Shown: one piece after another, positions 10,354-23,658 of the stretch
How positions within the stretch are numbered: the stretch's first letter is position 1
How the letters are laid out: each line of letters opens with the position of its first letter
NCBI GenBank assembly: GCA_017552705.1
Contig: JAFZOY010000045.1
Span: 11,405 to 75,404, forward strand
Direction of reading: 5' to 3'
DNA length: 64,000 nucleotides
Source of the DNA: Bacteroidales bacterium
Lineage (GTDB): Bacteria > Bacteroidota > Bacteroidia > Bacteroidales > UBA1715
Program-made: the position numbers and the translations under genes
The notes under the pieces: model-generated
What the model was told of the DNA's origin: nothing
What the model saw: only the letters and a program-made list of their open reading frames with translations
Databases searched by the model: none

Positions 10354-10422
10354 TGTTAATTTAATAAGTGATACATTACTATGATTTTCTACGTAACCAC
10401 CACAAAGATAGGAAGAAAAACT

Positions 10423-13400
10423 CTATTCTTGCGAAAGCTCTTCTGCGATTATTTCTGCTTGTTTTAAAACTGTTTCCGTGGCAAGTTGTTGCATATCAGG
10501 TGGGTAACCGTATTTGCGTAACAGTCTTTTAACAGAGACTTTCATCTTAGCACGAACATTTTCCTTAATTGTCCAATCAATAGATGAATTTTTACGGATT
10601 GTTTCAGTCAACACAACTGCCAATTCCCGCAATTTGTCCTTGCCCATCAGTTCTATAGCACTCTCATTATCGGCCACGGCAGAATAGAATGCATATTCGT
10701 AGGTTGTAAGTCCCATATTTTCAGCATCCTTGTCTTTTGCCACAATGGTTTTGCTGAGTTGGATAAGTTCGTCGATAACTTCGGCGGCAGTCAGAACCTT
10801 GTTATGATAACGTGTAATGGAACTGTCGAGCATCTCCATCAGCGTGCGGCCTTCCACCACATTGAATTTGGAGCGAGCCTTGATTTCGCCTTCCAGCAAC
10901 TTGCGCAACACTTCCAACGCTATATTCTTGTGTTCCATCCCTTTAAGTTCCATCAAAAATTCTTCTGACAGAATGGAAATATCAGGTTTCTTTATACCTG
11001 CCGCATCGAACAAGTCGATTACTTTCTCCGAGACAAGGGCTTGGTCTATCACCTGACGGATGGTGGTTTCTATATCTTCGTTAGTATGGTCTATTCCTGT
11101 TTGGTCGAACTTGCACAGACGGGCTTTCACTGCTTGGAAAAACGCCACCTCATCCTTCACGTCCATTGCAGCATCGTTGGGAACAGCAATGGCGAAAGCC
11201 TTACCCAAGGCGGTTACTTCGTTTACAAAACGCTTCTTACCATCGTCCAAGCCCAAGATGAAATTCTCAGCTTTCAGAATCCACGAGAGTTTGCCCGAAG
11301 TGTCGGCGGTGAAATATTGCTTATATTCGAAGCCATAGAACATCTGTGCCACCACTTCCAGTTTTTCCTGCATCATGGCTACGGCTTGCTCCTGTTGCTG
11401 TGTCGGATCGCCTTTGCCACCCGAGTCGGAATAGAATGACAGGGCTTTCTTCAGATCCGAGGCAATACCAAGATAATCAACCACCAAACCACCTGGTTTG
11501 TCCTTATATACGCGATTCACGCGGGCGATGGCCTGCATGAGGTTATGTCCCTGCATAGGCTTGTCGATATAGAGTGTATGCAGGCATGGCACATCGAAGC
11601 CTGTCAGCCACATGTCGCGTACAATGACGAGTTTCAATTCATCGTCGGGATCTTTCATGCGTTCCGCCAACGCCCTGCGCTGCTCTTTGGTGGTGTGATG
11701 TTTAGAAATATTTGCGCCATCCGAGGCAGACGATGTCATCACAACTTTTATCGCACCTTTTGCCAAATCGTCGGAATGCCAATCTGGACGAAGTTTGATT
11801 ATTTCATCATATAGTTCTGCGGCGATTCGACGGCTCATTGCGACAACCATCGCCTTGCCTTCAAACACCTTCTGACGTTCCTCAAAGTGTGTGACAATAT
11901 CTTTCGCAATGTTTTTCAAACGATTCGGACTGCCTATCAGCGCCTCCAATTGTGTCCATTTTGCTTTTGCCTTTTGGACATCGTTCATGTTGTCGGTTTC
12001 CAATTCCTTGTCGAGTTCTTCAACCAATTGGCGGCCTTCGTCGCTCAACTCCACCTTTGCCAGACGGCTTTCATAGTAGATGCGCACGGTGGCGCCGTCT
12101 TCCACAGCTTGGGCAATGTCGTAAACGTCAATGTAGTTGCCGAAAACGGCAGGCGTGTTCTTATCTTCTTTCTCGATGGGTGTTCCAGTGAAACCGAGAT
12201 AGGTGGCATTCGGCAACGCATCGCGTAGGTATTTGGCGAAACCGTATTTGATTTCCGAACCAATAACCTCATCGGCTTCGTTCTTCACATCCACATTCTT
12301 TGCCTTGAAACCGTATTGTGTGCGGTGTGCCTCGTCGGCCATCACGATGACATTGCTGCGGTCGGTGAGCGTGTCGTAAACATTGCCCTTCTCGGGTTGA
12401 AATTTTTGGATTGTGGTAAAAATCACACCGCCCGACTGCACCGACAAGAGTTTCTTCAAGTGCTCACGGTTTTCGGCTTGCACTGGTGTCTGCCTAAGCA
12501 GTTGCTTTGCGCCCGTGAAGGTGTCGAAAAGCTGGTCATCCAAATCGTTACGGTCGGTGATAATGACAACTGTCGGATTGTTAAGGCGTTGCACGATTTT
12601 GCCCGTATAGAACACCATGGTCAGTGATTTACCACTACCTTGCGTGTGCCACACCACACCAGCGCGGTGGTCGCCTTCCGTCTGTTCCGCCACCGTTTTG
12701 AGTCCATAGTGCGCGGGCGATTCTGCGACCATGTTATTCGTGTTGATACCCGTGGCCCGAATAGTTGATTCCACCGCCTTGTTGACGGCATAGTATTGAT
12801 GGTAGGCGGCGATTTTCTTCACCGTCTTGATGGTGGTGAGGCCCGTTTTTAGGTCCTCCTGTTTCTGTTTCTCGAATACTGTGAACGACTGCACTAAATC
12901 GAGTAAAACATCCTTCCGCATCATACCGTTGACTAACACTTCCAACTCACTCACTAAATGCGAAGCGATGTTCTCGCCGTCCTCGCTCTTCCAAACCGTA
13001 AATCGGCTGAAGCCCGCCGAAAGCGAGCCTGCACGCGCCTCCAGTCCGTCGGAAATGACCACCAAAGCGTTATAGGTGAACAGTGATGGAATCTGTTGTT
13101 TATAGGTCTCTATCTGACGGAAAGCACTTTGGATGGTAGCGTTCTCGTCGGCGGCGTTTTTCAATTCGAAGATAACCAACGGCAGACCGTTCACAAACAA
13201 CAGCACATCGGGGCGGCGGTTGTGACCGTTTTCGATGATTGTAAATTGATTGACAATGGTAAACTCATTGTTGTGAAAGTCGTTGAAGTCGATGAGCCAC
13301 ACCCTTTCGCCTCGCTCCACGCCGTCTTTTGTAATTGAAACAGGAATTCCTTCTGTCAGCATTCGATGAAACGTCTCATTGTTGGCAAGCATATCTGGCG

Positions 13401-13635
13401 AGTCCAGATGCATCACCGTTTTTATCGCCGCTTCCTGCACCAACCAAGGCAATGAAGGATTAATTCGCTTCACGGCATTCTCCAACTTATGGTACAGCAA
13501 TACATCCTCAAAGCTCAATCGCATAGGATTCTCACAGTCAGGCGCAATGTCGGGGCCGTAGAGGTACTGATAGCCTTTGGCTTTAAGCTGCTCGATGAGC
13601 ATTTGTTCTATGTCGGATTCGTGGAGTGGGGGCAT
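10423..13635 (-). CDS. hsdR: Type I restriction enzyme, restriction subunit R
   Basis: RPD..FELKN nuclease motif, HTQGSGKS Walker A, DEAHR, MWLTGFD and QAIARVNR helicase motifs. Confidence 0.96.
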
Positions 13636-13641
13636 AACAAC

Positions 13642-14148
13642 TTACAATTTAACAGAAGGAATATATTTCGTAATATCTACATTAGGTAACTTACTCCCTT
13701 TGGAGATTACATCGGTAATGAATTTTGAACAATCGGCAGATGAGAGTTTTTTTCTCTCATAAGCATAATACAAGAAATCGAGGGTTGTCAAGTAAGTTAT
13801 ACTTTCCTTTGCACAGTATGCTTTGATGTCCTTCAGATTACTGCTGCCAATCACATTGTTGGTAAACTTACAATAAGCCATGCAGGCGCTTTCACCTTTT
13901 CCGAACGTGTTCTTTAACATTGCATATTCTTTCAAAACTTCTCCTGTGGGATTGAACGTCTCCAATACTATATTCTTCAAGAAGTGGATCTGGTTGTCGA
14001 GCTGACCTTGAATAGTTCCTATTTCCTCGTAAACAGTACTAAGCACAACATGGTCGTATTCCGTCAATATTTTGGGCAACAGACTCAACATATTGGCTTT
14101 AGAGAAATGAATCAGCACATCAGCATCCAGCACTATCTTGACTTTCAT
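13642..14148 (-). CDS. PIN-domain protein (DUF3368/COG2405-like putative ribonuclease toxin)
   Basis: IVLDADVLI (first Asp), VYEEI, GKGESAC, LTTLDFL. Overlaps the upstream peptidase gene. Confidence 0.75.
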   Translation of the reverse strand: MKVKIVLDADVLIHFSKANMLSLLPKILTEYDHVVLSTVYEEIGTIQGQLDNQIHFLKNIVLETFNPTGEVLKEYAMLKNTFGKGESACMAYCKFTNNVIGSSNLKDIKAYCAKESITYLTTLDFLYYAYERKKLSSADCSKFITDVISKGSKLPNVDITKYIPSVKL

Positions 14149-14854
14149 ACCCTATTAGATTTAACAGTTCAAGATAATGTCCTTCGGAAATTTTCTCTTT
14201 TTCGAACAATTGTCTTGCCTTTGAGCCAAAATCGCCAATAATAAGGCGTTCACCGTCACCTTTCTTGTATAATCGGTCATCGTAGCCACGCAACGCCGCT
14301 TCTTTTATAATGCTAAGTTTCAAGAGCGATTCTGCACATTTGGGAGTTATTATTCGTAGCTCCTTTAGCCGCACCACCATGGTTTGATGTGAAATGCCAT
14401 AAAGTTGTTCCAATCGGATAACGGTATCAATTCTGATTTGTTTATCTTTCAATTCTTCCGCAGGAATATTCATAAGCAGACCTTCTTTGGGCATCAGGAA
14501 GGCGGAAGCAAACATATTTGCAGAGCGTTCCGCAGGATCTGTAATTTGAAGTTGCCCGCAAAAATGAGGCTGCGGATTTTCGTCGAAATAAAGATGATAC
14601 AGCTCGTGGGCGATGGTAAAATGCTGCCTTCCCTTGGTAATACTACTATTGACAAGCATAAAGCGGTTTTTCCCGTCAGTGGAGCTCAAGGAGAGGCCAA
14701 AGAGATTGTCCGATAATGGACGATAAACCGTCATAATATTAAGCTGACGGAGAGCGGTCTTCATATTGACGGGTTCGCTGCTTGAAATCCGTAAATATTC
14801 ACCACGCATTTTTGCGGCAAGGTTCTCGGCTGTTTCAAAATCAATCTTTTTCAT
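14120..14854 (-). CDS. ImmA/IrrE family zinc metallo-endopeptidase
   Basis: RQHFTIAHELYH (HExxH) and ERSANMFASAFLMP. C-terminal KISEGHYLELL helix pair. Confidence 0.92.
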   Translation of the reverse strand: MKKIDFETAENLAAKMRGEYLRISSSEPVNMKTALRQLNIMTVYRPLSDNLFGLSLSSTDGKNRFMLVNSSITKGRQHFTIAHELYHLYFDENPQPHFCGQLQITDPAERSANMFASAFLMPKEGLLMNIPAEELKDKQIRIDTVIRLEQLYGISHQTMVVRLKELRIITPKCAESLLKLSIIKEAALRGYDDRLYKKGDGERLIIGDFGSKARQLFEKEKISEGHYLELLNLIGYESQDSAGC

Positions 14855-15186
14855 TCCGCAAGAAGTTTCCCCATTTTCAAATAATTCAAGACAAGATTTT
14901 TGAACTCTGCTATTTCCTTCATATCATTGGTATTGATGTCGTCGGCACGGAAGGCACAAGTCAATATGTCATCGACGACATTTTTGTCTTCCTCGAACAA
15001 AAGGCCAAGTTCGCAGCCGAATAATGCCACGGCTTTTTCAAGAACTTCAAGAGGCGCTTCGCGTTCTCCGCTCTCATAATTGGCGTATGCGGAACGGTTG
15101 ATTCCCAAGAACTCCGAAACCTTCTCCTGCGTATAGCCATTGGCCGTACGCAAGGATTTTAAGTTTCTTCCAATAACAGTTTTCAT
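14851..15186 (-). CDS. XRE-family helix-turn-helix transcriptional regulator
   Basis: LKSLRTANGYTQEKVSEFLGINRSAYANYESG. 4-bp ATGA overlap with the peptidase gene. Confidence 0.92.
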   Translation of the reverse strand: MKTVIGRNLKSLRTANGYTQEKVSEFLGINRSAYANYESGEREAPLEVLEKAVALFGCELGLLFEEDKNVVDDILTCAFRADDINTNDMKEIAEFKNLVLNYLKMGKLLAE

Positions 15187-15230
15187 AAAAGACTTTTGTT
15201 GTTTTATTATTACTTTAATGGAGATTGTTT

Positions 15231-15293
15231 ATCCGTGGCAAAAATACAAAAAATATTTTTAGACCGCATTGTTTTGCCACGGATTTTGTATTT
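15231..15293 (-). promoter_or_regulatory. Putative promoter and palindromic operator of the HTH-ImmA-PIN-hsdR unit
   Basis: Perfect 13-bp inverted repeat ATCCGTGGCAAAA (15231-15243) / TTTTGCCACGGAT (15272-15284). Second 10-bp inverted repeat at 15242-15251 / 15284-15293. Minus-strand TATTTTTG -7 box at 15239-15246. Confidence 0.6.
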
Positions 15294-15453
15294 CCGCAAT
15301 TATTTCCACTGCTGTCAACGACAGGGTGAAAGGAGGCATGTATCCTTGGTATTTTATTTATTTGTTTGTACGCCATATTCAATTCATTTTGCAAATGATA
15401 GTCAATTTGTCATAAATGGTTGCTCGATGTCGGATTCGTGAAATTGTGGCATA

Positions 15454-15675
15454 CTATTCTATTCTTTCGTATGGATAAACATTTTTATAATTCCTGTTTA
15501 GATAAGATCCTATTGATGGCGCATTATCTAATGCTTCATATTCCATAAATGGCACATTGTTGTACTTATAAAGTGAGCCATTTAAGAATCTCACATAAAC
15601 AATTTGGTTGTCTTCATCATATCCAAGTTCGGCCACATTGGATGAACTAACTTGATGCATCTCTGGGTATTCCAT
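15454..15675 (-). CDS. KTSC domain protein
   Basis: VSSSNVAELGYD..VRFLNGSLYKYNNVP...APSIGSYLNRNYK matches the KTSC signature. Lies 13 bp downstream of herA. Confidence 0.9.
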   Translation of the reverse strand: MEYPEMHQVSSSNVAELGYDEDNQIVYVRFLNGSLYKYNNVPFMEYEALDNAPSIGSYLNRNYKNVYPYERIE

Positions 15676-15688
15676 ATTATTACTAATT

Positions 15689-17488
15689 TTATTGTTTGTT
15701 ATTTATTTTTTGATTTCTCCAATTCTCAAGTAATTGTTTGTAAGTGTCTATTGTAATGTTTTTATCTTCACTCCATTTTTCGGAAACATTAGGATCAGAG
15801 CCTTTGGGTGCATCTGCCAATTTATAGAATTGAACTCGTGAGGGTATTTTAACTCCTTCACCAGATATAATCCCTTCGCCAGTTCTTAAACTTGGTAACA
15901 AATCCACCATTGTTTGCAATTCATCCTGAATGGCTCCTCGTATATAACTTCTATCTTTAGCATTATTCATACGTAAGGCTATTATTGTTCCACATTGACT
16001 CAGAACTGTTTCGTCTAATTCCGAAGGTCGTTGGGTAACTAATGCCAATCCAACCCCATATTTACGCCCCTCTTTTGCTATTGTTTGTACTGTTCTTGAA
16101 GAAATAGATTTCTCACCAGCCTTTAAATAATTATGCGCTTCCTCTAAAACAATCAACAAGGGTTGTTCTTTCCCTCCATTTGGTAAATCTTGCCCCCAAA
16201 ATAGAGCATCATAAATGATTTTCAACAAAGTGCCCGATACAGAAATCATTATTTCATTAGGGATTCCTGAAAGATCAAGTATTGTTATCGGCTTGTCACT
16301 TCCCAACCATTCAAACAACAAATCACCCAAATCCTTTTGCACTTTTCCATTTAAATCCGGTGCATAATCTCCTGGGGCAAACAAAAAACTATAGGTTGAA
16401 TCTTTCAGTTTTAACCTTATACTGTCCAAAAAACCAAGTATTCCTTTAGCTTGATTATTTAAGAACGGTGAGCCACCACCAGCAGCCGCAGGCTGATAAA
16501 TATTTGACAATAAGTTTTCAGCATTTCCATCTTGAACCTTATTGGTTTTTGTTTCTGGTTTACCTCTTTCTCTATATGTTTGTCTTTCGAAATCATCTAA
16601 TTCAAACCATAGTTGTTTAATGCTAAAAGGAATTGGAGTATCTTGAGTTATAAGTTCTTCTTCGATTTGTATATTATTTTCTTTGGCCGCTTTAATTTTT
16701 GCTTCAACCAGTTTGGTTCTAAAATATTCGCTATTCTGATCTGTTAAGTTTCCAGAGAAAATGCTCATTAATTCATTAAACGGCAATGCCCAAAACGGCA
16801 CATTAAGTTCTTTCTCCCCTTTATCAATATCAGCGCGTATTTTATAAACGGTACTTTGAGATTTCAAAACGCTATTATATTCTCCATGAGGATCAATCAC
16901 CAATACCCTTGACCTCTTGAAACCCTTATCCGCAATTGCTTTTAATAAAACACCAACAGCATTGGATTTGCCACTTCCTGTTGAACCCAAAATTGCACAA
17001 TGTCTTGAAACTAACTTGTTTAAATCAATCTTTGCGTTCAAACTCTCCGATATACTGATATTGCCAATATCTATAGAATTAGTTTCATTATATCCGCCAT
17101 AAATAATATTCAAATCATCAATGGTAACTAAATGGACCTTGTCTCCTGTGGTTGGAGACTGAAAAACACCCCTTTCAAATTTTCGTCCAATTTGCTCACC
17201 AATTAATGCAATAGTTAAGAATTGACGGTTATCCCATTTTGAAAAATCGAGATTCTCTTCTTCTATTTTTAGCCTTTCCGGAATTGCCGCCGCTCCAATC
17301 TGGGTGACAATTCCATACAGGTTTGCATATCCCAAAGGAACCTTCAAAAATGATCCAATTTGACCTATTCTATAAACAATTCCATTTATAACAGGCATAT
17401 TGGACTTAATTGTATTAAACAATTGAACAGAAATAGTATTACCACTAACGCTTATAATTTCCCCAACTTCAGTTTGTCTACTATCCAT
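15689..17488 (-). CDS. HerA/FtsK-family ATPase (HAS barrel + DUF87), anti-phage HerA type
   Basis: HCAILGSTGSGKS Walker A, IDPHGEY, IVLEEAH Walker B, KEGRKYG arginine finger, TQRPSELD. Confidence 0.93.
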   Translation of the reverse strand: MDSRQTEVGEIISVSGNTISVQLFNTIKSNMPVINGIVYRIGQIGSFLKVPLGYANLYGIVTQIGAAAIPERLKIEEENLDFSKWDNRQFLTIALIGEQIGRKFERGVFQSPTTGDKVHLVTIDDLNIIYGGYNETNSIDIGNISISESLNAKIDLNKLVSRHCAILGSTGSGKSNAVGVLLKAIADKGFKRSRVLVIDPHGEYNSVLKSQSTVYKIRADIDKGEKELNVPFWALPFNELMSIFSGNLTDQNSEYFRTKLVEAKIKAAKENNIQIEEELITQDTPIPFSIKQLWFELDDFERQTYRERGKPETKTNKVQDGNAENLLSNIYQPAAAGGGSPFLNNQAKGILGFLDSIRLKLKDSTYSFLFAPGDYAPDLNGKVQKDLGDLLFEWLGSDKPITILDLSGIPNEIMISVSGTLLKIIYDALFWGQDLPNGGKEQPLLIVLEEAHNYLKAGEKSISSRTVQTIAKEGRKYGVGLALVTQRPSELDETVLSQCGTIIALRMNNAKDRSYIRGAIQDELQTMVDLLPSLRTGEGIISGEGVKIPSRVQFYKLADAPKGSDPNVSEKWSEDKNITIDTYKQLLENWRNQKINNKQ

Positions 17489-17498
17489 GACTTAACAT

Positions 17499-18749
17499 TT
17501 AATTTGAAACAATCATACTTTTCAGAAAGGCAACAAATTTGGCAAAATCAGGAATAATTAATTCACCTTCACCAGTCCAAGTTTGAGTGAGTTCTTTTCC
17601 TTTTTCATCTGACGCATCTGAGCTGGCATCTTCGTCAAAATATTTATCAATGTTGATAGAATCATCTTTGTCTGGTTCTCTTTTCAGTTTCCATTTTCCA
17701 TAAACTCCACCAATTACCGCCGAACGCGAAGCAAACACGGATATTTTACTATTAGAGATTGCCATTTTTGCTAAAGTAGAATCTTCTGTAAATGAATATT
17801 CTTTTTTGCCCTTCTTCCATACAATATCATATAAAAGTACATAAACATGGCCTAATGGATTCATGGATAATGCCGTGTTAATTCTTTCATTGATATGCTC
17901 GTCTCCAAATGAATACCCACAAACAATAAGTACGGTGTCATCTTGTTTGATGAAATTAGTCAACCTATCGCCCAAAGCAGTATACGGCTGTTTCCTTGAT
18001 TGATCATATTTAAGAGTTGAAGGATAAATAAGAATATCTGTCTCATCAGGATTTGTTCTAATGACTTTTTTAATTTTTTCGTCATAGTGCCATCCTAATG
18101 AACCATGTATTTTCCACAGTTTTGTTTGTTTTGGCATAAAACAAATGTCATCAACTGATTGACCATCAAAAAAAGGTTTATAACTACCAGTAAACCCATC
18201 ATAATAAGACAAGTTATTGTATTCAAAAGCTATCTCAAATAGATAGTCATAATTGGTTGTAAACACTTCAACAGCAGTTTTTCTATCAGCCTTTTGAATC
18301 CATTCTGCAAAAGTTGCATGAATCAGTTTAGTACAGTCAATTTTATCTTGTACATAGACTTTGGCATGAATCTGTTTCTTTATTTCTTTGATTAACTTAT
18401 CAAAGCCATTTTTGTCCAAATCATTTATTTTCCCATTGCCAACAACCTGCTTTTTTAGTTCAAGTTTTGACAATATTGTTTCTATTGTGAATGTTTTATT
18501 TTCAGATTCTATCTCCGATTTTATCTCTTCAATTGCTTTTTTCCATGCCTCTTCAACAATGCCTCCTACAATGTCAGTAGTCATTTTTTGTATTGCAGGC
18601 ACATACGGTTCATTTGTATCAACATTTTTTACAAGTGAAGTACCTGCTCCAAAAAGGAAGCCAATGCGTTTTTTGTCAGACACCAGTAATTGCTGTAAGT
18701 TCCTAACATATTCTAAAGGGTCGTGGTAAATAGTTTTATTATCTTCCAT
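17499..18749 (-). CDS. SIR2-like (SIR2_2) NADase, partner of HerA
   Basis: FLFGAGTS, FTTNYD, KIHGS and GYSFGDEHIN motifs. Lies 10 bp upstream of herA. Confidence 0.92.
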   Translation of the reverse strand: MEDNKTIYHDPLEYVRNLQQLLVSDKKRIGFLFGAGTSLVKNVDTNEPYVPAIQKMTTDIVGGIVEEAWKKAIEEIKSEIESENKTFTIETILSKLELKKQVVGNGKINDLDKNGFDKLIKEIKKQIHAKVYVQDKIDCTKLIHATFAEWIQKADRKTAVEVFTTNYDYLFEIAFEYNNLSYYDGFTGSYKPFFDGQSVDDICFMPKQTKLWKIHGSLGWHYDEKIKKVIRTNPDETDILIYPSTLKYDQSRKQPYTALGDRLTNFIKQDDTVLIVCGYSFGDEHINERINTALSMNPLGHVYVLLYDIVWKKGKKEYSFTEDSTLAKMAISNSKISVFASRSAVIGGVYGKWKLKREPDKDDSINIDKYFDEDASSDASDEKGKELTQTWTGEGELIIPDFAKFVAFLKSMIVSN

Positions 18750-18750
18750 A

Positions 18751-19893
18751 TTATCTTATTGTTATTTCGTTAGACATTAATTTCGGCAGCAACCCATCTC
18801 TCGTTTCTATGAGCGTTATGATTTGTTTCTGATTATTTTCCATTTTCTCAAAATAGCCTCTGACCATTTCATCGTACTGCTTAATCCTATCAATGTCGCT
18901 ACAAACTATCTGTTGCTTTATTAAATCTTGACTGATATTTTGTTGAGCAGCACCACTTGCAAGATTGATAAAGTCTTCTTTCATCAATGCTGTCCATACA
19001 TACAAATAAGTATATGGGTAATTCTTATTTGGAATTAAAGCGCATACTGCTTGATTACAAGTCATTGGTTTTGATAAAATTCCGTATTCACCTACAGTTG
19101 CACCATACATAGCAATCAGTACGGATTTTTCAGGAATCATTTTTGCCGAAGAATTAGCGACAGCATCTTCTGTAATCAATTCTTCGGTTGTAGAAATAAA
19201 AGTTCCATCTAATTCCTTCGATTTCACCCAATTTATCGTTCCATTCTCATAATAATCAGAATGTTTGCGGGATGGTGTTCCTCCTGATATGGTTTTAACA
19301 ACATCTCCGAGAGCGACTTCCTCCCACTCCTCCTTGTCCTCCACCACAAACCACTGGCGGAAGAGCGTCTCCGCCATCTGCTCCAAGGTAGCGTTCTCGC
19401 GGTGCAGAAGGTCTATCTTGTCGTCCAAAGAAGTGAGGATTGAGGCGATGCGGCGCTGCTCATCAAGAGAAGGTAATGAAATGTCCCAATTCATGATATG
19501 AGCCTTATCACCACGAGGCATTTTACAACCTTTCGATCCTAGCATCACATAATCAAAAAATATATCTTGAGACAGCAGGAAGAACAAATACTTTGAATCA
19601 ACAATACCTTCCTTCGCTTCAAAACACAATACATCATTAGAACAACCGCCCTCTCTATTTGCGTACCATATCTTTTTAAAATAAGGACGGATATTAGATA
19701 CAAGAATCGTATTTGGATAGTATTTTGTAACAGTTCCTTCTTCTGGCTTCCCTGATGCCACTGTTATACCACCCTTGTCTGGAAACATATTTTCCGTAGA
19801 AATATACTTTTCAGTTGCAATACTATGTACCGCAACTTTTTCTTTTACAAAAGAAGCAATCTCTCCCAACTTATATTCTTTCCACTCGCTCAT
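18751..19893 (-). CDS. hsdS: Type I restriction-modification specificity subunit S (two TRDs)
   Basis: WKEYKLGEI, LPSLDEQRRIASILTSLDDKI, GGTPSR, RDGLLPKLM. Confidence 0.95.
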   Translation of the reverse strand: MSEWKEYKLGEIASFVKEKVAVHSIATEKYISTENMFPDKGGITVASGKPEEGTVTKYYPNTILVSNIRPYFKKIWYANREGGCSNDVLCFEAKEGIVDSKYLFFLLSQDIFFDYVMLGSKGCKMPRGDKAHIMNWDISLPSLDEQRRIASILTSLDDKIDLLHRENATLEQMAETLFRQWFVVEDKEEWEEVALGDVVKTISGGTPSRKHSDYYENGTINWVKSKELDGTFISTTEELITEDAVANSSAKMIPEKSVLIAMYGATVGEYGILSKPMTCNQAVCALIPNKNYPYTYLYVWTALMKEDFINLASGAAQQNISQDLIKQQIVCSDIDRIKQYDEMVRGYFEKMENNQKQIITLIETRDGLLPKLMSNEITIR

Positions 19894-21062
19894 AATCCCT
19901 CCTTTTTCATCATTTGGTTATACAGCATAATGCCCTTTGCCGTAAGCAGATACTTCTGCCGCGGATGGCGGGGCTTGTCGGGGTAGAGCCTGCGGACAAA
20001 ACCTTCAGCTATGGCAGGGTTAAGATAAAGATTCAAGAAATTATCCCTCCCTTTTAAATTCAAGACCTCCATTATTTCCTTAATTGCCATCTGTTGGTGT
20101 CCAATGGATTTCACAATTCTTAATATATCTTCATTTTCCGTATGGAACTTGTCCTGTACTTGTCCTGTACTTGTCCTGTGTTTGTAGGGTACTTGTCCTT
20201 CCTCAGGCATCTTCCACTCCTCAGGCGGGTTAATCATCATATAACGGTTCTTCAACGTATTATCCTCACCTAGAAGTAAATTGCGGAAAAAACGCACCAA
20301 AAATACAGGCTCATACTCAATACCCTTTGCCACATTACGATAGTTGGCACGTACAAGCGCATTGCGGAAATACCATGAATGTTGCTCAAACATGTCATTG
20401 TTCACATCAAAGCCAAGCGAACGCAAATATTTAATGGTGAAAATAGCTGTGGTACGCGTATTCCCCTCACCAAAAGGATGAATTTGCCACAAACCTGAGA
20501 CAAACTTAGCTATACGTTCCACCAACTGGTTTTTGTCCAATGACTTGTAGCTGACTTGCCGTTCTTGGTCCAAATCGTACTGAATGGTCATGCTTAAATC
20601 TTCCCAATGGGCATATAACACCGTGTCGCCACGCAACACCCATTCATTTTTGGCAATGTCATAATCCCTGAATCTGCCTGCATGTTTGAAAACGCCCTCG
20701 AAGATTGCCTTGTGAATTGCCGCCAAACCAGCAACACTATACGTAAACGAGTCGGTTTGCAACAATTTTGAAATATTTGTCGAAACCTTATCGGCTTCTT
20801 CCACGTTGGCATCGCCATCGTCGTGTGCTGTTTTCTTGATATAGTATTGATTAACAAGTGCTTTCGCCTCGTCAATCGTAATATCCCCCTCAATGTTCCG
20901 ACGGGCTGTTTCCTGCAAATATGCCGAAGTTTTCAAACCATCAACAGCTTGCAAACCGATTGCCACACGCCATGCCTCGGCACGTTCGCGTTTGGCAGGT
21001 TCGCCTTGGCGAATGTATTCGTCGAAGTTGAGATATTGCTCGTTTCCGATAGTCTCGCTCAT
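19890..21062 (-). CDS. Fic family protein with N-terminal VbhA-like antitoxin domain and C-terminal HTH-like domain
   Basis: AIGLQAVDGL..GDITIDE N-domain. Fic motif HPFGEGNTRTT. C-terminal YLNPAI..PDKPRHPRQKYLLT. Confidence 0.9.
   Translation of the reverse strand: MSETIGNEQYLNFDEYIRQGEPAKRERAEAWRVAIGLQAVDGLKTSAYLQETARRNIEGDITIDEAKALVNQYYIKKTAHDDGDANVEEADKVSTNISKLLQTDSFTYSVAGLAAIHKAIFEGVFKHAGRFRDYDIAKNEWVLRGDTVLYAHWEDLSMTIQYDLDQERQVSYKSLDKNQLVERIAKFVSGLWQIHPFGEGNTRTTAIFTIKYLRSLGFDVNNDMFEQHSWYFRNALVRANYRNVAKGIEYEPVFLVRFFRNLLLGEDNTLKNRYMMINPPEEWKMPEEGQVPYKHRTSTGQVQDKFHTENEDILRIVKSIGHQQMAIKEIMEVLNLKGRDNFLNLYLNPAIAEGFVRRLYPDKPRHPRQKYLLTAKGIMLYNQMMKKEGL
20147..20199. repeat. 11-bp tandem repeat (ACTTGTCCTGT)x3 plus two degenerate units inside fic
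   Basis: Exact units start at 20147, 20158 and 20169. Degenerate GTTTGTAGGGT at 20180 and partial ACTTGTCCT at 20191. Confidence 0.85.
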
Positions 21063-22675
21063 TATGCCTCCTTGTCTTCTAACTTTATCTTCCCCAGATT
21101 TTCCAAAATCAATTTGTTCAACCGTTCTTCCTCTTTCAGTTGCTCCTCAAACTCGGCTTTCAGGGAAGTAAAACGCTCGGCAAAGTTGAAATCGTCTTCC
21201 TCCTCAGGCAAACCCACATAACGGCCAGGCGTGAGCACATAATCCAACTCAGCCACACGGCTTATCGGCACAGAAGCACAGAATCCGGGAATATCCTGAT
21301 AGGCGGTGCCTTCGACAAGCTCAGGCACTGGAGTTCCTCTGAAGCTTGAACCCATACTATCGATGGATGAGCCTGTCGAAACCACAGATGATTCGTCACG
21401 CCACAGATGATAGGTTCTGGCTATTTTCTGAATATCGTCTTCCGAGAGTTCGCGGGTGCGTCGATTGATAAGATGTCCCTCGTTGCGGGCATCGATAAAG
21501 AGAATCTCACCAGCACGTTTAGTGCGGTTGCGCGTCACAAACCATAGGCAAGCAGGAATCTGGGTGTTCAGGAACAACTTGGCTGGAAGGTTCACAATAC
21601 AGGCTATCAAACCTTTATCAATCAGAGCCTTACGAATGTCGCCCTCTCCACCAATCTTCGATGTCAGCGAACCTTTGGCAAGCACGAATCCTGCTTGTCC
21701 GCTTGGTGCAAGATGATAGATAAAGTGCTGAATCCAAGCAAAGTTGGCGTTGCCTGTTGGTGGTACGCCGTATTGCCAGCGAGCGTCGGAACGCAATTGG
21801 TCGCCGCTCCAGTCGCTGTCGTTAAACGGCGGATTGGCCAACACATAGTCAGCTTTCACATCACGATGCGCATCGTTCAGGAACGAGCCCTCGGTGTTCC
21901 ACTTCACCTGCGAAGCGTCTATGCCACGAATGGCAAGGTTCATCCTGCACAAGCGCCAAGTGGTCTGGTTGCTTTCCTGTCCGTAAACCGAGATGTTCTC
22001 AATCCGTCCCTGATGCTCCTTCACAAACTTCTCGCTCTGCACAAACATACCTCCTGAACCACAACAGGGGTCAAGCACACGGCCATTGTACGGTTCCAAC
22101 ATATTCACGAGCAATTCAACAACACTGCGCGGCGTATAGAATTGTCCGCCCTTCTTACCTTCAGCCAAGGCAAACTCACCAAGGAAATACTCAAACACAT
22201 GCCCCAACAAATCGGCACTTTTGGTACTGGTGTTTTGCAAAGTTGAATTTCCTATTAGGTCAATCAGTTCACCCAAACTTGTCGGGTCGAGGTTTGGTCG
22301 GGCAAACACCTTGGGCAGCACGCCTTTTAGCGTTTTGTTCTCGTGCTCAATCTCGTCCATCGCATCATCGATGAGTTTTCCAATCATCGGATTTTTTGCA
22401 TTGTCGGTCAAATAACTCCAACGGGCATTTGCCGGAACGTAAAAGACGTTTTCAGCTGCATACTCCTCACGGTCTTCAGGGTCAGCGCCATCGGCCTGTT
22501 GCGCAACAAGTTGGTTATATAGTTGCTCAAACGATACCGAAATGTATCGAAGAAAAATCAAGCCTAATACTACATGCTTGTATTCCGCCGCATCAATATT
22601 TTTGCGCAGTTTATCAGCCGCCTTCCAAAGCTGTTTTTCAAGGGGTTCTTCTATTTGTTCTTTAATTTTTGCCAT
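21062..22675 (-). CDS. hsdM: Type I restriction-modification N6-adenine methyltransferase subunit M
   Basis: GQFYTP, LDPCCGSGG and ANPPF motifs. Minus-strand -7 box at 22692-22699. Confidence 0.96.
   Translation of the reverse strand: MAKIKEQIEEPLEKQLWKAADKLRKNIDAAEYKHVVLGLIFLRYISVSFEQLYNQLVAQQADGADPEDREEYAAENVFYVPANARWSYLTDNAKNPMIGKLIDDAMDEIEHENKTLKGVLPKVFARPNLDPTSLGELIDLIGNSTLQNTSTKSADLLGHVFEYFLGEFALAEGKKGGQFYTPRSVVELLVNMLEPYNGRVLDPCCGSGGMFVQSEKFVKEHQGRIENISVYGQESNQTTWRLCRMNLAIRGIDASQVKWNTEGSFLNDAHRDVKADYVLANPPFNDSDWSGDQLRSDARWQYGVPPTGNANFAWIQHFIYHLAPSGQAGFVLAKGSLTSKIGGEGDIRKALIDKGLIACIVNLPAKLFLNTQIPACLWFVTRNRTKRAGEILFIDARNEGHLINRRTRELSEDDIQKIARTYHLWRDESSVVSTGSSIDSMGSSFRGTPVPELVEGTAYQDIPGFCASVPISRVAELDYVLTPGRYVGLPEEEDDFNFAERFTSLKAEFEEQLKEEERLNKLILENLGKIKLEDKEA
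21306..21385. repeat. REP-like inverted repeat pair inserted in frame within hsdM
   Basis: GTGCCTTCGACAAGCTCA (21306-21323) versus TGAGCCTGTCGAAACCAC (21368-21385), 15/18 complementary, 44-bp spacer. Confidence 0.7.
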
Positions 22676-22756
22676 AAAACAGATTATACAACAAAAATAA
22701 GTATTTATTGCAAATTTGCCCTATTCAAAATACAATTTATCTCCTATCTTTGCTAT

Positions 22757-23149
22757 ATGAAACGGGTGTTTTTGTCGATAGTAGCCATTGCCTGTGGGTT
22801 TATGACAGGATACTGCATGGATTTCCAATTGCCGAAGGAGGACCATGTGAAGTGCCGAAATATGTCGCAACAGCAGATAATGGATTATCTTACGGCAATT
22901 GTCACTGATTCGTTGATGGCAGAAACCGCAAGTCGCGATAGTACTTTGTTGCTTGCGTATATCGAACGACGTCCGCAGAATTGCGTGGCGGTTATCTACA
23001 CGATAAAGTTTATGATTGAAAAAGAAGAGTTCAGCTATGTGGTGTACTATGGCGTAACCGCCCGCGACAACACCGATGAATGCCAGCAGGATGTGTACGC
23101 CGAAATGAAAGAGGTTGAACAACATTTAAGGCGTTTGTTGCGGATATAA
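22757..23149 (+). CDS. Hypothetical exported protein
   Basis: MKRVFLSIVAIACG signal-like N-terminus at ATG 22757, directly after TATCTTTG (22745-22752). Confidence 0.6.
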   Translation: MKRVFLSIVAIACGFMTGYCMDFQLPKEDHVKCRNMSQQQIMDYLTAIVTDSLMAETASRDSTLLLAYIERRPQNCVAVIYTIKFMIEKEEFSYVVYYGVTARDNTDECQQDVYAEMKEVEQHLRRLLRI

Positions 23150-23181
23150 AAAAAGCCCTCTCGCTTTCACGGGAAGGCTTT
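23148..23181 (-). terminator. Intrinsic terminator between convergent genes
   Basis: AAAGCC..GGCTTT stem with an A-run on the left, giving a U-tail on the minus strand. Confidence 0.6.
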
Positions 23182-23205
23182 CCATCAATGTATTAACTAA
23201 AAAAT

Positions 23206-23658
23206 TTAAAATACTCCGTTCAATATTTTGTAAATTTCTGCTGCTGCTTGGATTTGTTCCGCTTTGTTGCTTGCACCTTCAATTGAACCATCAGTCAATG
23301 CTGTCAGCAATTTATCTGTAAGGGCTGTTTTTGCAGCTTCTTTGTCGTTGATGTCAATGTCGGTTTTTGCTTCTACTGCAGTAGAAGCGGCACTTTTTGT
23401 AAACTCACTCATCCATTCTTTGTTATCCTTATTATCATCGTAAGCTTTGTATGCCATATATAAACTTACCCCTGCTTCTATCTTTTTAACATCGTTATTA
23501 GTTTCTTCTGCTTCTTTATACTTTGCGTAAGATTCATACAAACTTGCTCCAGATTCTGTAGGATCTGCTTGTTTTTCTTCTTTTTCTTTGTCACCACAAG
23601 CTGTGAAGCAGAGTGCCATTCCTAAAAATGCCATAAGGCTTAACATAAATTTTTTCAT
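23206..23658 (-). CDS. Hypothetical lipoprotein
   Basis: Signal peptide with lipobox FTA-C followed by a charged helical body. Confidence 0.75.
   Translation of the reverse strand: MKKFMLSLMAFLGMALCFTACGDKEKEEKQADPTESGASLYESYAKYKEAEETNNDVKKIEAGVSLYMAYKAYDDNKDNKEWMSEFTKSAASTAVEAKTDIDINDKEAAKTALTDKLLTALTDGSIEGASNKAEQIQAAAEIYKILNGVF

Follow-up and report, generated by a model that had tools for sequence, protein, structure and literature searches.

Gene content of the locus

The analysed window, a stretch of 64,000 nt from a Bacteroidales contig, carries a complete type I set at one locus: domain search and PADLOC identified hsdM, hsdS and a full-length hsdR, with further defence genes lying between them. 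All coordinates of the following features refer to the minus strand.

22692..22699, minus: -7-box-like motif TATTTTTG, intergenic upstream of hsdM (motif scan, minus strand 10400-23300)
21062..22675, minus: hsdM, type I methylase subunit (N6_Mtase 2.4e-109, HsdM_N 1.4e-27)
19890..21062, minus: Fic-domain gene embedded between hsdM and hsdS (Fic, Fic-like_C; PADLOC PDC-S72 1.1e-118)
18751..19893, minus: hsdS, specificity subunit (Methylase_S 3.2e-35)
15689..18749, minus: embedded defence pair, SIR2 (18749-17499, PADLOC 8e-112) and HerA (17488-15689, PADLOC 8e-155)
15454..15675, minus: KTSC-domain gene (KTSC 5.9e-22), its stop codon 1 nt ahead of the fossil hsdR ATG
15453-15187, minus: gap of 267 nt between the KTSC and HTH genes
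15420..15452, minus: truncated hsdR start (stub), ATG plus ~10 codons (MPQFHESDIEQ), matched to the true start at 13635; similar stubs occur in relatives
15371..15408, minus: remnant of a leader common to other cassettes (alignment with L061, Fic, and with L065 and L003, YhcG)
15232..15283, minus: predicted promoter/operator of the triad, inverted repeat plus -7 box (motif scan, sequence, relatives)
14851..15186, minus: Xre/CapH-like HTH repressor, 111 aa (HTH_3 2.3e-13; PADLOC capH 1e-6; conserved C-terminal region)
14120..14854, minus: M78 (ImmA/IrrE/CapP-like) metallopeptidase, 244 aa (Peptidase_M78 1.1e-14; PADLOC capP 4.3e-19)
13642..14148, minus: PIN-like nuclease, 168 aa, COG2405/DUF3368 type, presumed toxin/effector (fold, conservation, PF11848 on homologues)
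10423..13635, minus: hsdR, type I restriction subunit, 1070 aa (HSDR_N, SWI2_SNF2, T1R_D3-like, T1RH-like_C; PADLOC REase_I)

The TATTTTTG motif upstream of hsdM is likely the main promoter of the hsd string. The original prediction described the HTH, M78 and PIN genes (here the triad) as running without interruption into hsdR after a single large gap, and the ORF coordinates bear this out: the HTH and M78 genes overlap by 4 nt, the M78 gene and the 168-aa ORF by 29 nt, hsdR follows after 6 nt, and all remaining junctions from hsdM to hsdR measure 13 nt or less. The motif scan agrees with the claim that hsdR has no promoter of its own within this tight gene string, as no -7-box-like motif was found in either the PIN gene or the 5′ end of hsdR. 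Because hsdR is devoid of such a motif, the predicted triad promoter must contribute to its transcription here. Between the hsdM promoter and hsdR, the minus strand of the gap contains no terminator-like site, so that read-through is expected and hsdR would not have to rely on the triad promoter.

Predicted products and operator of the triad

The view of the HTH and M78 proteins as a repressor-peptidase pair stands as far as their resemblance to CapH and CapP is concerned, but the peptidase differs from CapP in having no GAF domain. PADLOC assigns capH to the HTH protein and capP to M78, and its RmrA models match the two separately. As in CapH/CapP, ImmR/ImmA and DdrO/IrrE, the partner of the peptidase is an Xre repressor with a C-terminal region, in which F79-R80, invariant in 20 sequences, lies where CapH is cut, Phe82|Arg83 (Lau 2022). 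The peptidase shares with CapP the HExxH motif and the additional Glu (H83-E84-x-x-H87 and E109, invariant in 33 sequences), and CapP is its closest structural match. C99, located in a lower-confidence loop and present in most, not all, of the 33 sequences, sits 12 residues past H87, while the cysteine switch C113 of CapP is found 13 residues past H100 (Lau 2022). In the AF2 model of M78 (pLDDT 86.4), residues 170-235 form short helices and one 3-residue strand, a helical C-terminal extension in place of the absent GAF domain. Only ~170-180 columns of M78 align with CapP and IrrE in Foldseek, and the PADLOC capP match spans profile positions 17-153 of 242. In the published account of CapP the GAF domain is part of the ssDNA-binding groove; thus, this groove is not present as such in the triad peptidase. 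The top PADLOC match of the peptidase is the untested candidate PDC-M69B (1.6e-27), ahead of capP and RmrA.

The label “PIN” for the 168-aa protein finds no backing in a Pfam-A search, which gave no match even at E 10, but it is upheld by fold and conserved acidic residues. For its AF2 model (pLDDT 97.1) the Foldseek matches listed are PIN-domain proteins (VapC, FitB, RNase P and similar), the best being 1y82_A with E 6.2e-4 and TM 0.57, and across 77 sequences the residues D8, D10, E42, D107 and D124 show at least 90% conservation. Homologues carry a precomputed PF11848 annotation; the PADLOC match to PDC-S70 is weak (1.9e-7). In a complex model, PIN against HTH plus M78 reached an ipSAE of 0.85 versus 0.06 for the best of 3 controls, and the score dropped to 0.06 once M78 was replaced. 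The ipSAE mark is reached by 116 of 157 solved complexes and by 2 of 215 mismatched pairs, counts that apply only roughly to a three-chain job with its own alignments, unlike those of the tool's calibration. The runs share at least 97% of contacts, with a partner pLDDT of at least 90. Modelled contacts connect M78 217-232 with PIN 8-10, 42-43, 82-86 and 102-108, which are conserved catalytic residues; the model supports binding in which the conserved C-terminal helix of M78 would occupy the PIN active site. The PDB contains no sequence relative of PIN, and solved relatives of M78 match mainly its catalytic core. A single M78-PIN fusion protein was found.

The gap had been said to hold a -7 box and palindromes, and it does contain a Bacteroidetes-type -7 box within a perfect 12-nt inverted repeat. 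The arms lie at 15283-15272 and 15243-15232, and the box TATTTTTG at 15246-15239 overlaps the right arm. A genome scan found this 12-nt repeat site once in 2.95 Mb. Among 31 upstream regions of the triad, 23 have a perfect inverted repeat measuring 8 nt or more; its type is GTGGCA, GTTGCA or GTTACA, and its spacer measures 28-35 nt. Overlap of a -7 box with the right arm was seen in 20 of the 31, and the two half-sites covary between clades. Due to this recurrence upstream of the HTH gene in relatives and the covariation, the repeat is beyond chance. Judged by sequence, the promoter of the HTH and M78 genes looks autoregulated, and the putative operator belongs to the triad unit.

Conservation of the triad and truncated hsdR starts

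M78 accompanies PIN in each of the 33 genome loci that a search with the PIN protein recovered, and the HTH gene precedes them in the same order in 32; the remaining locus is cut by a contig end. The original prediction had called for a survey of the linkage between triad and hsdR. Downstream DNA of 1.5 kb or more is available for 26 loci. Four of these have hsdR directly next to the triad, another 4 have it beyond one or two intervening genes, and the remaining 18 lack it. Direct abutment was seen in L001, L002, L010 and L011 as well as in metagenome contigs, and other cassettes stand between triad and hsdR in L003-L006, L043 and L059. Within the clade nearest to the window (PIN identity of 68% or more), type I operons house 8 of the 11 loci, and a functional tie to restriction is therefore possible. 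Many triad neighbourhoods are rich in defence genes (type I R-M, GmrSD, AIPR, SIR2-HerA, AAA_21-RloB), and mobile-element genes lie beside the triad in some loci, VapE-like in L012 and L013 and a resolvase in L016. The L081 contig has lost most of PIN and kept HTH, M78 and hsdR. RNA-library contigs run continuously from the -7 box via the triad into hsdR, although contigs cannot prove a single transcript.

Seen from hsdR, the triad is one of several neighbours. The gene directly upstream in the hsdR lineage of the window varies (Fic, AAA_14, YhcG, RloB or transposase), and every one of them abuts hsdR tightly; the lack of promoter room is generic to the slot before hsdR and not specific to the triad. 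A scan for the hsdR 5′ core yielded 48 distinct contexts, namely 33 true starts, 2 cut ones and 13 stubs. The stubs nearly always break directly after ...ATGCTCAT, two of them ~10 nt further. A contig can hold up to three copies of the hsdR start, e.g. in the order hsdS, stub, triad, stub, Fic, hsdR, and the 3′ end of the triad brings its own “MPPLH” version of the start, before a true hsdR or a stub alike. Stubs also precede hsdR genes that share only 53-61% identity with that of the window, as seen in 4 of 28 loci drawn from the whole bacterial order, and the stub junction differs between hsdR families. This varying junction fits homology-driven exchange by a putative recombination mechanism. 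Cassette seams are marked by such truncated starts, one of which lies within the gap of the window. At the leader remnant (15371..15408), relatives have a -7 box TATCTTTG and a start codon at the same place, and alignment with L061, L065 and L003 shows that a 1-nt insertion disrupts the window's copy of the box. The gap reads as a scar, composed of a stub and the remnant of another cassette's leader. A full-text literature search returned no description of such truncated hsdR starts in the passages that it reached.

Possible role of the triad and its relation to restriction

The triad type has already been predicted as a three-component Xre/COG2856/PIN, RosmerTA-like system. The architecture appears in the predictions of Makarova 2009 (PMC2701414) and Matelska 2017 (PMC5499597), and also in Ernits 2023 (PMC10440598) and the Millman 2022 preprint, which describe RosmerTA with RmrA and RmrT. 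With these systems the triad shares an operon that joins an HTH protein and a zinc peptidase of the ImmA type to a toxin-like gene behind them. The unit is likewise mobile, conserved across unrelated contexts and often found in defence-rich DNA. The COG2405/DUF3368 type of its PIN-like partner matches Xre-COG2856-PIN systems, and the RmrA models of PADLOC recognise both the HTH protein and the peptidase. In contrast to RmrA, where the two are fused, they are separate genes in the triad, and the helical extension of the peptidase, predicted to plug the PIN active site, distinguishes it from RosmerTA and Xre-COG2856-PIN systems as the cited passages describe them. The triad is a split-gene relative of both, and a literature search found no tested member with this PIN family. 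In RosmerTA a peptidase-bearing antitoxin neutralises the toxin in phage defence; for the triad, the complex model suggests that M78 may neutralise PIN in a similar way. As in CapH/CapP, the predicted operator overlaps the promoter. Unlike the described CapH/CapP pairs, which lie upstream of the regulated operon on the opposite strand (Lau 2022), the triad is upstream of and codirectional with the genes it would control, and it contains PIN as a fixed third gene.

Unrelated defence genes between hsd genes are also known from PrrC in EcoprrI, DarTG2 with RptR, TgvAB in VPI-2 and the rlo genes; according to PMC12707154, PMC12255303 and PMC11411939, they probably share transcripts with the hsd genes. 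PIN-like genes coupled to type I subunits were noted by Matelska 2017 (PMC5499597). What sets the present operons apart is the visible seam: truncated hsdR starts recur along it, and as many as three cassettes follow one another.

We consider it fairly probable that HTH, M78 and PIN form an autonomous mobile module of the toxin-antitoxin or abortive-defence type that is docked at the hsdR seam, its link to hsdR being incidental. Gene content, PIN fold, conservation of unit and operator, stubs and variable neighbours are the observed part of this explanation; repression, cleavage, toxicity, trigger and transcripts we infer. An HTH dimer would bind the inverted repeat over the -7 box and repress the operon, while the peptidase C-terminal helix from I222 to L230 would keep PIN inactive by sitting in its active site. 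Upon an infection or damage signal, the peptidase would cleave the repressor, probably at F79|R80, leaving PIN in excess or released. The first ~35-70 nt of hsdR would serve type I operons of this order as a homology seam for swapping promoter-bearing accessory cassettes, each insertion leaving behind a shortened hsdR start on the upstream side and joining a new one to the 3′ end of the cassette. The triad would stand before hsdR because the hsdR 5′ end acts as this seam. If cassettes are swapped there, hsdR would be transcribed by read-through from the hsdM promoter, plus from the triad promoter, and any induction would be a by-product of insertion. Co-induction of hsdR with the triad is possible, but not required.

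The original prediction instead saw HTH and M78 as a CapH/CapP-like switch devoted to silencing hsdR and PIN while hsdM and hsdS are expressed from the upstream promoter, until DNA damage or infection leads to repressor cleavage and induces restriction. The CapH-like HTH protein with its invariant F79-R80, CapP as the top structural match of the peptidase, the operator over the -7 box, the position of hsdR 6 nt past PIN, the loci and metagenome contigs with direct abutment, the retention of HTH, M78 and hsdR in L081 and the unbroken RNA-library contigs all favour such a switch. We nevertheless regard it as unlikely, given that the triad keeps its own operator yet occurs without hsdR in 18 of the 26 informative loci, that other cassettes can intervene, that hsdR abuts whatever gene lies upstream, and that read-through from the hsdM promoter is expected; moreover, neither the opposite-strand arrangement nor the GAF domain of the described pairs (Lau 2022) is present. 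Transcriptional control, which had been thought unusual for type I R-M, is already published for RptR (PMC12255303).

A purely transcriptional switch, with PIN as a free effector like CBASS under CapH/CapP and no neutralisation at the protein level, was proposed for HTH/DUF955/PIN systems by Matelska 2017 (PMC5499597) and is consistent with the conserved, seemingly autoregulatory operator and the CapH-like cleavage motif. It is improbable in our judgement: in the model, the invariant C-terminal motif of M78 lies in the PIN active site with an M78-dependent score, the overlap of 29 nt suggests translational coupling, M78 and PIN occur as a single protein in one case, and with a single promoter for repressor, peptidase and PIN, de-repression would raise all three. 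Alternatively, the triad could act as an addiction module, stabilising the restriction island or the cassette itself and taking part neither in phage defence nor in hsdR regulation. The toxin-antitoxin-like architecture, patchy distribution, mobile-element neighbours and loss of PIN in one copy (L081) would suit this reading, but we hold it to be very unlikely in view of the many defence-rich neighbourhoods and of the protection against phage by RosmerTA relatives reported in the Millman 2022 preprint and in Ernits 2023 (PMC10440598).

Beyond the docked module that we favour, we can only tentatively envisage a two-tier restriction, a scenario with little probability, in which the hsdM promoter would supply methylation and basal HsdR, and the repressor-peptidase switch, tripped by infection or DNA damage, would free PIN and at the same time cause a surge in hsdR transcription. 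If this were true, the cassettes at the seam would be sensors wired into restriction, beyond mere neighbours.

Gene order and transcription of hsdR

The genes considered here form a string on the minus strand:

22675-21062, minus strand: hsdM
21062-19890, minus strand: Fic-domain gene, between hsdM and hsdS
19893-18751, minus strand: hsdS
18749-17499, minus strand: SIR2
17488-15689, minus strand: HerA
15675-15454, minus strand: KTSC-domain gene
15453-15187, minus strand: gap of 267 nt
15186-14851, minus strand: Xre-type HTH gene
14854-14120, minus strand: M78 peptidase gene
14148-13642, minus strand: open reading frame of 168 aa (PIN-like)
13635-10423, minus strand: hsdR

The layout described in the original prediction was recovered exactly, with overlaps of 4 nt between HTH and M78 and of 29 nt between M78 and PIN and a 6-nt spacer before hsdR. 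The gap aside, the remaining junctions from hsdM to hsdR are all ≤ 13 nt. The Fic gene (19890-21062), which shares 1 nt with hsdM and 4 nt with hsdS, matches the PADLOC candidate PDC-S72 (1e-118), and Fic is also the commonest direct upstream neighbour of hsdR among relatives. A SIR2-HerA defence pair (15689-18749) is embedded between hsdS and the KTSC gene. Because the G+C content of the 15-19 kb bins, which hold SIR2-HerA with hsdS and KTSC, is 0.32-0.36 versus 0.48-0.51 in hsdR and hsdM, the operon is a mosaic.

The triad of HTH repressor, M78 peptidase and PIN-like nuclease had been proposed to act as a protease-switched, inducible control of restriction by hsdR. A scan of the minus strand from 10400 to 23300 placed intergenic -7-box motifs at three sites alone: 22699 (upstream of hsdM), 15246 (the gap) and 10410 (after hsdR). 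PIN and the 5′ end of hsdR contain none. Since a terminator-like site is missing from the minus strand of the gap, transcription starting at the hsdM promoter would be expected to continue through the triad into hsdR. In RNA libraries of relatives, contigs run unbroken from the -7 box via HTH, M78 and PIN into hsdR (X2 record 9, 8045 nt; X3 record 10, 4918 nt); these runs provide contigs only, from relatives that are ~ 95% alike, and such contigs are no proof of one continuous transcript and give neither its start nor its level. They leave 15424-16000 uncovered (5′ end of the truncated hsdR copy in the gap, KTSC, 3′ end of HerA) and are uninformative there. A sigma-70 scan (40 promoter-like sites, 30.9 expected) was set aside, since promoters of the -33/-7 type seem to be the ones used by this organism. 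The combined pattern TTTG...TAnnTTTG gave 5 matches with 4.0 expected, none of them in the region, and the -7 box was scanned alone instead.

In this strain, hsdR may be co-induced to some extent by the promoter of the triad. An hsdR junction too tight for a promoter is the rule at this position, whichever gene lies upstream, and is therefore no sign of a special circuit. This removes a tempting but weak inference, namely that missing promoter room indicates dedicated control.

The triad as a cassette at the hsdR start

Scanning the PIN protein against one genome per species yielded 33 loci. M78 and PIN occur together in all 33, and HTH is present in the same order in 32, the exception (L032) being ended by a contig edge. 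Downstream context was informative, with at least 1.5 kb past the triad, in 26 loci.

Table. Downstream context of the triad (26 informative loci)
hsdR directly abuts PIN: 4/26 (L001, L002, L010, L011)
hsdR follows after YhcG, AAA_21+RloB or AAA_14-DUF4143 genes: 4/26 (L003-L006)
No hsdR downstream: 18/26 (remaining loci)

Where no hsdR follows (18 loci), the triad has as neighbours, among others, housekeeping genes, a GmrSD-like gene, AIPR and VapE-like genes. All eight hsdR-linked loci belong to the 11 nearest relatives, those with a PIN identity of 68% or more, and in L015 the triad is positioned after hsdR. The tie between triad and hsdR is thus real, but it is lineage-specific and in many cases indirect. 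In one metagenome contig with the same triad (L081, 4404-4486, compared with L042), PIN has lost 401 nt internally, so that HTH, M78, what remains of PIN, and hsdR are left.

In the window gap, the KTSC stop codon is followed immediately by a truncated copy of the hsdR start, here called a stub (15452-15420, MPQFHESDIEQ), that resembles the true start at 13635. A like stub precedes the triad in L001, L002 and L011, and in L003 one lies after the triad and before the YhcG gene. A metagenome scan with a 26-letter core of the hsdR 5′ end gave 56 stretches in 54 loci; dropping identical contexts left 48. Of these, 33 are true starts of hsdR, 13 are stubs (L064 being atypical) and the other 2 are cut off by the end of the contig. 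Nearly all stubs end right after ...ATGCTCAT, at codons 13-16, and two extend ~ 10 nt more. Single contigs carry two or three copies of the hsdR start, for example in the orders hsdS, stub, triad, stub, Fic, hsdR (L043/L044/L061) and triad, stub, AAA_21+RloB, hsdR (L059/L080). A version of the hsdR start particular to the triad, “MPPLH”, is always joined to the triad 3′ end, both where a true hsdR follows and where a stub does. One crossover inside the 5′ core that the hsdR copies share would account for this pattern.

Behind the window stub lies a ~ 40-nt leader (15371-15408) that also precedes Fic, YhcG and unknown-gene cassettes (L061, L065, L003; alignment A4). In relatives it stands right after the stub and carries a -7 box and a start codon; in the window copy the -7 box is broken by a 1-nt insertion and no gene lies behind it. 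From these sequence comparisons, the window gap is probably a scar and the hsdR start a seam at which accessory cassettes exchange. Different genes immediately precede the 33 true hsdR starts (98 open reading frames scanned from representative loci).

Table. Genes directly upstream of hsdR (33 true starts)
Fic: 8
AAA_14-DUF4143: 5
Triad (plus one PIN-deleted, one cut): 5
YhcG: 3
AAA_21+RloB: 2
IS200-type transposase: 2
Single cases (HEPN, DEAD helicase, AAA_13, unknowns): several

The IS200-type Y1 transposase (L048 4018-4473, L065 5600-6055, L011 10384-10839) immediately precedes hsdR in two contigs, and in another locus it comes just after hsdR.

The seam extends beyond close relatives. An hsdR relative was found in 57 of 401 genomes of an order-wide sample, and 4 of the 28 loci examined there carry upstream copies of their own hsdR start (L102/L126, L105, L106/L128, L130), which flank RhuM, DUF3800 and Schlafen-type genes. 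Stubs also stand before hsdR genes only 53-61% identical to that of the window. The observation of truncated starts at cassette seams, up to three per contig, draws on window 15420-15452, L001, L002, L003, L011, L035-L082, L102/L126, L105, L128 and L130. A fixed site-specific core was rejected because junctions in other hsdR families differ in distance (~ 40-70 nt). Our literature searches found no published description of a stub-marked seam, which does not prove its absence.

The triad is an independent, self-contained cassette, the seam at which it sits is a general site of insertion, and hsdR adjoins whichever gene is there; a switch for restriction is unsupported.

Repressor, peptidase and PIN-like nuclease

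The reading of the first two genes as a repressor-peptidase pair is well supported by homology. The HTH product matches HTH_3 (2.3e-13) and PADLOC capH (1e-6), and F79-R80 is invariant within its conserved C-terminal region in an alignment of 20 relatives. CapP is reported to cut CapH at the Phe82-Arg83 bond (Lau et al. 2022 preprint), and F79-R80 would be the putative CapH-like cleavage motif of the window HTH. The promoter box and palindrome noted earlier in the gap are present: a Bacteroidetes-type -7 box, TATTTTTG (15246-15239), sits inside a perfect 12-nt inverted repeat (arms 15283-15272 and 15243-15232) that occurs once in the 2.95-Mb genome. Perfect repeats of at least 8 nt with a spacer of 28-35 nt lie upstream of HTH in 23 of 31 regions, and in 20 of 31 the right arm is overlapped by a -7 box; in three cases (window, L005, L009) a different A/T-rich repeat was picked first by the script, and the GTGGCAAA arms are visible on inspection. 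The half-sites covary by clade, with GTGGCAAA/TTTGCCAC, GTTGCAAA/TTTGCAAC in L020 and GTTACA/TGTAACA in a distant clade. Such joint change should be the behaviour of a dimeric repressor site, and we propose the repeat as the putative operator of the triad itself.

The peptidase matches Peptidase_M78 in Pfam and PDC-M69B (1.6e-27), capP (4.3e-19) and several RmrA models in PADLOC, and all 33 sequences compared keep H83, E84, H87 and E109. Its best Foldseek match is CapP (7t5t, E 1.2e-6), with IrrE/PprI next, in alignments spanning only ~ 170-180 columns. In the AF2 model (pLDDT 86.4), residues 170-235 form short helices and one short strand, and a GAF domain is absent. While CapP is described as having a GAF half in its ssDNA groove (Calloji et al. 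2026 preprint), the window peptidase lacks this half. A mostly conserved cysteine, C99 (window 14556-14558), lies in a lower-confidence loop 12 residues past HExxH (alignment A2), apparently at the place of the CapP cysteine switch, and close relatives have a Cys-containing C-terminal tail.

The 168-aa protein gave zero Pfam matches even at E 10, and PseF, its sole NCBIfam match, was at chance level. As both databases were uninformative, it was identified via its fold. The AF2 model (pLDDT 97.1, 77-sequence alignment) has PIN proteins as its listed Foldseek matches (VapC, FitB, protein-only RNase P and similar), D8, D10, E42, D107 and D124 are conserved, and PF11848 (DUF3368) is precomputed on many homologues; the PIN assignment made earlier was therefore correct.

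In a three-chain complex model, PIN against HTH and M78 reached an ipSAE of 0.85, the best of three controls giving 0.06; 116 of 157 solved complexes attain this mark, as do 2 of 215 mismatched pairs, counts that apply only roughly to a three-chain job with custom alignments. Runs agreed in at least 97% of contacts with a partner pLDDT of at least 90, and an unrelated protein in place of M78 lowered the ipSAE to 0.06. No protein related in sequence to PIN is present in the PDB, and the M78 relatives there match mainly the catalytic core, so that a score owed to a memorised similar complex is, by sequence, unlikely. A pass of this kind speaks for binding but is no demonstration of it. Confident contacts join M78 217-232, which includes the invariant or near-invariant I222, S223, E224, G225, H226, Y227, E229 and L230, to PIN 8-10, 42-43, 82-86 and 102-108, and the PIN side of this predicted interface consists of conserved catalytic residues. 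The C-terminal helix of the GAF-less M78 may therefore, as modelled, plug the PIN active site, for which we found no published description. A single database protein, P0389 (402 aa), fuses M78 peptidase and PIN-like domain and could be a real fusion or a frameshift within the 29-nt overlap. Overlap and fusion fit a hold of PIN by the peptidase at the protein level. We hypothesize that HTH would autorepress transcription of the triad, while the peptidase would additionally hold PIN as a protein.

The triad within Type I defence operons

The architecture of the triad had already been predicted, and defence genes inside Type I operons are in print. COG2856-Xre with PIN or RelE is described as a three-component system (Makarova 2009, PMC2701414), and PIN-like COG2405/DUF3368 as co-transcribed with HTH and DUF955, with PIN-like genes also coupled to Type I subunits (Matelska 2017, PMC5499597); as described there, these Xre/COG2856/PIN systems have the same architecture as the window triad. 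The ImmA hub antitoxin is reported to have PIN-like partners (Ernits 2023, PMC10440598), and anti-phage defence was demonstrated for RosmerTA (Millman 2022 preprint). PrrC (PMC12707154), DarTG2 with its repressor RptR (PMC12255303) and TgvAB (PMC11411939) are reported as embedded in Type I operons.

In conclusion, the triad offers a concrete, testable model for its family, with a repressor carrying a CapH-like cleavage motif, a GAF-less M78 peptidase and a possible plug of PIN. The window genome and the order-wide sample lend independent support to the view that, in rumen and gut Bacteroidales, truncated hsdR starts mark sites of cassette exchange in Type I operons, and exchange at this seam explains how these operons turn into defence islands.
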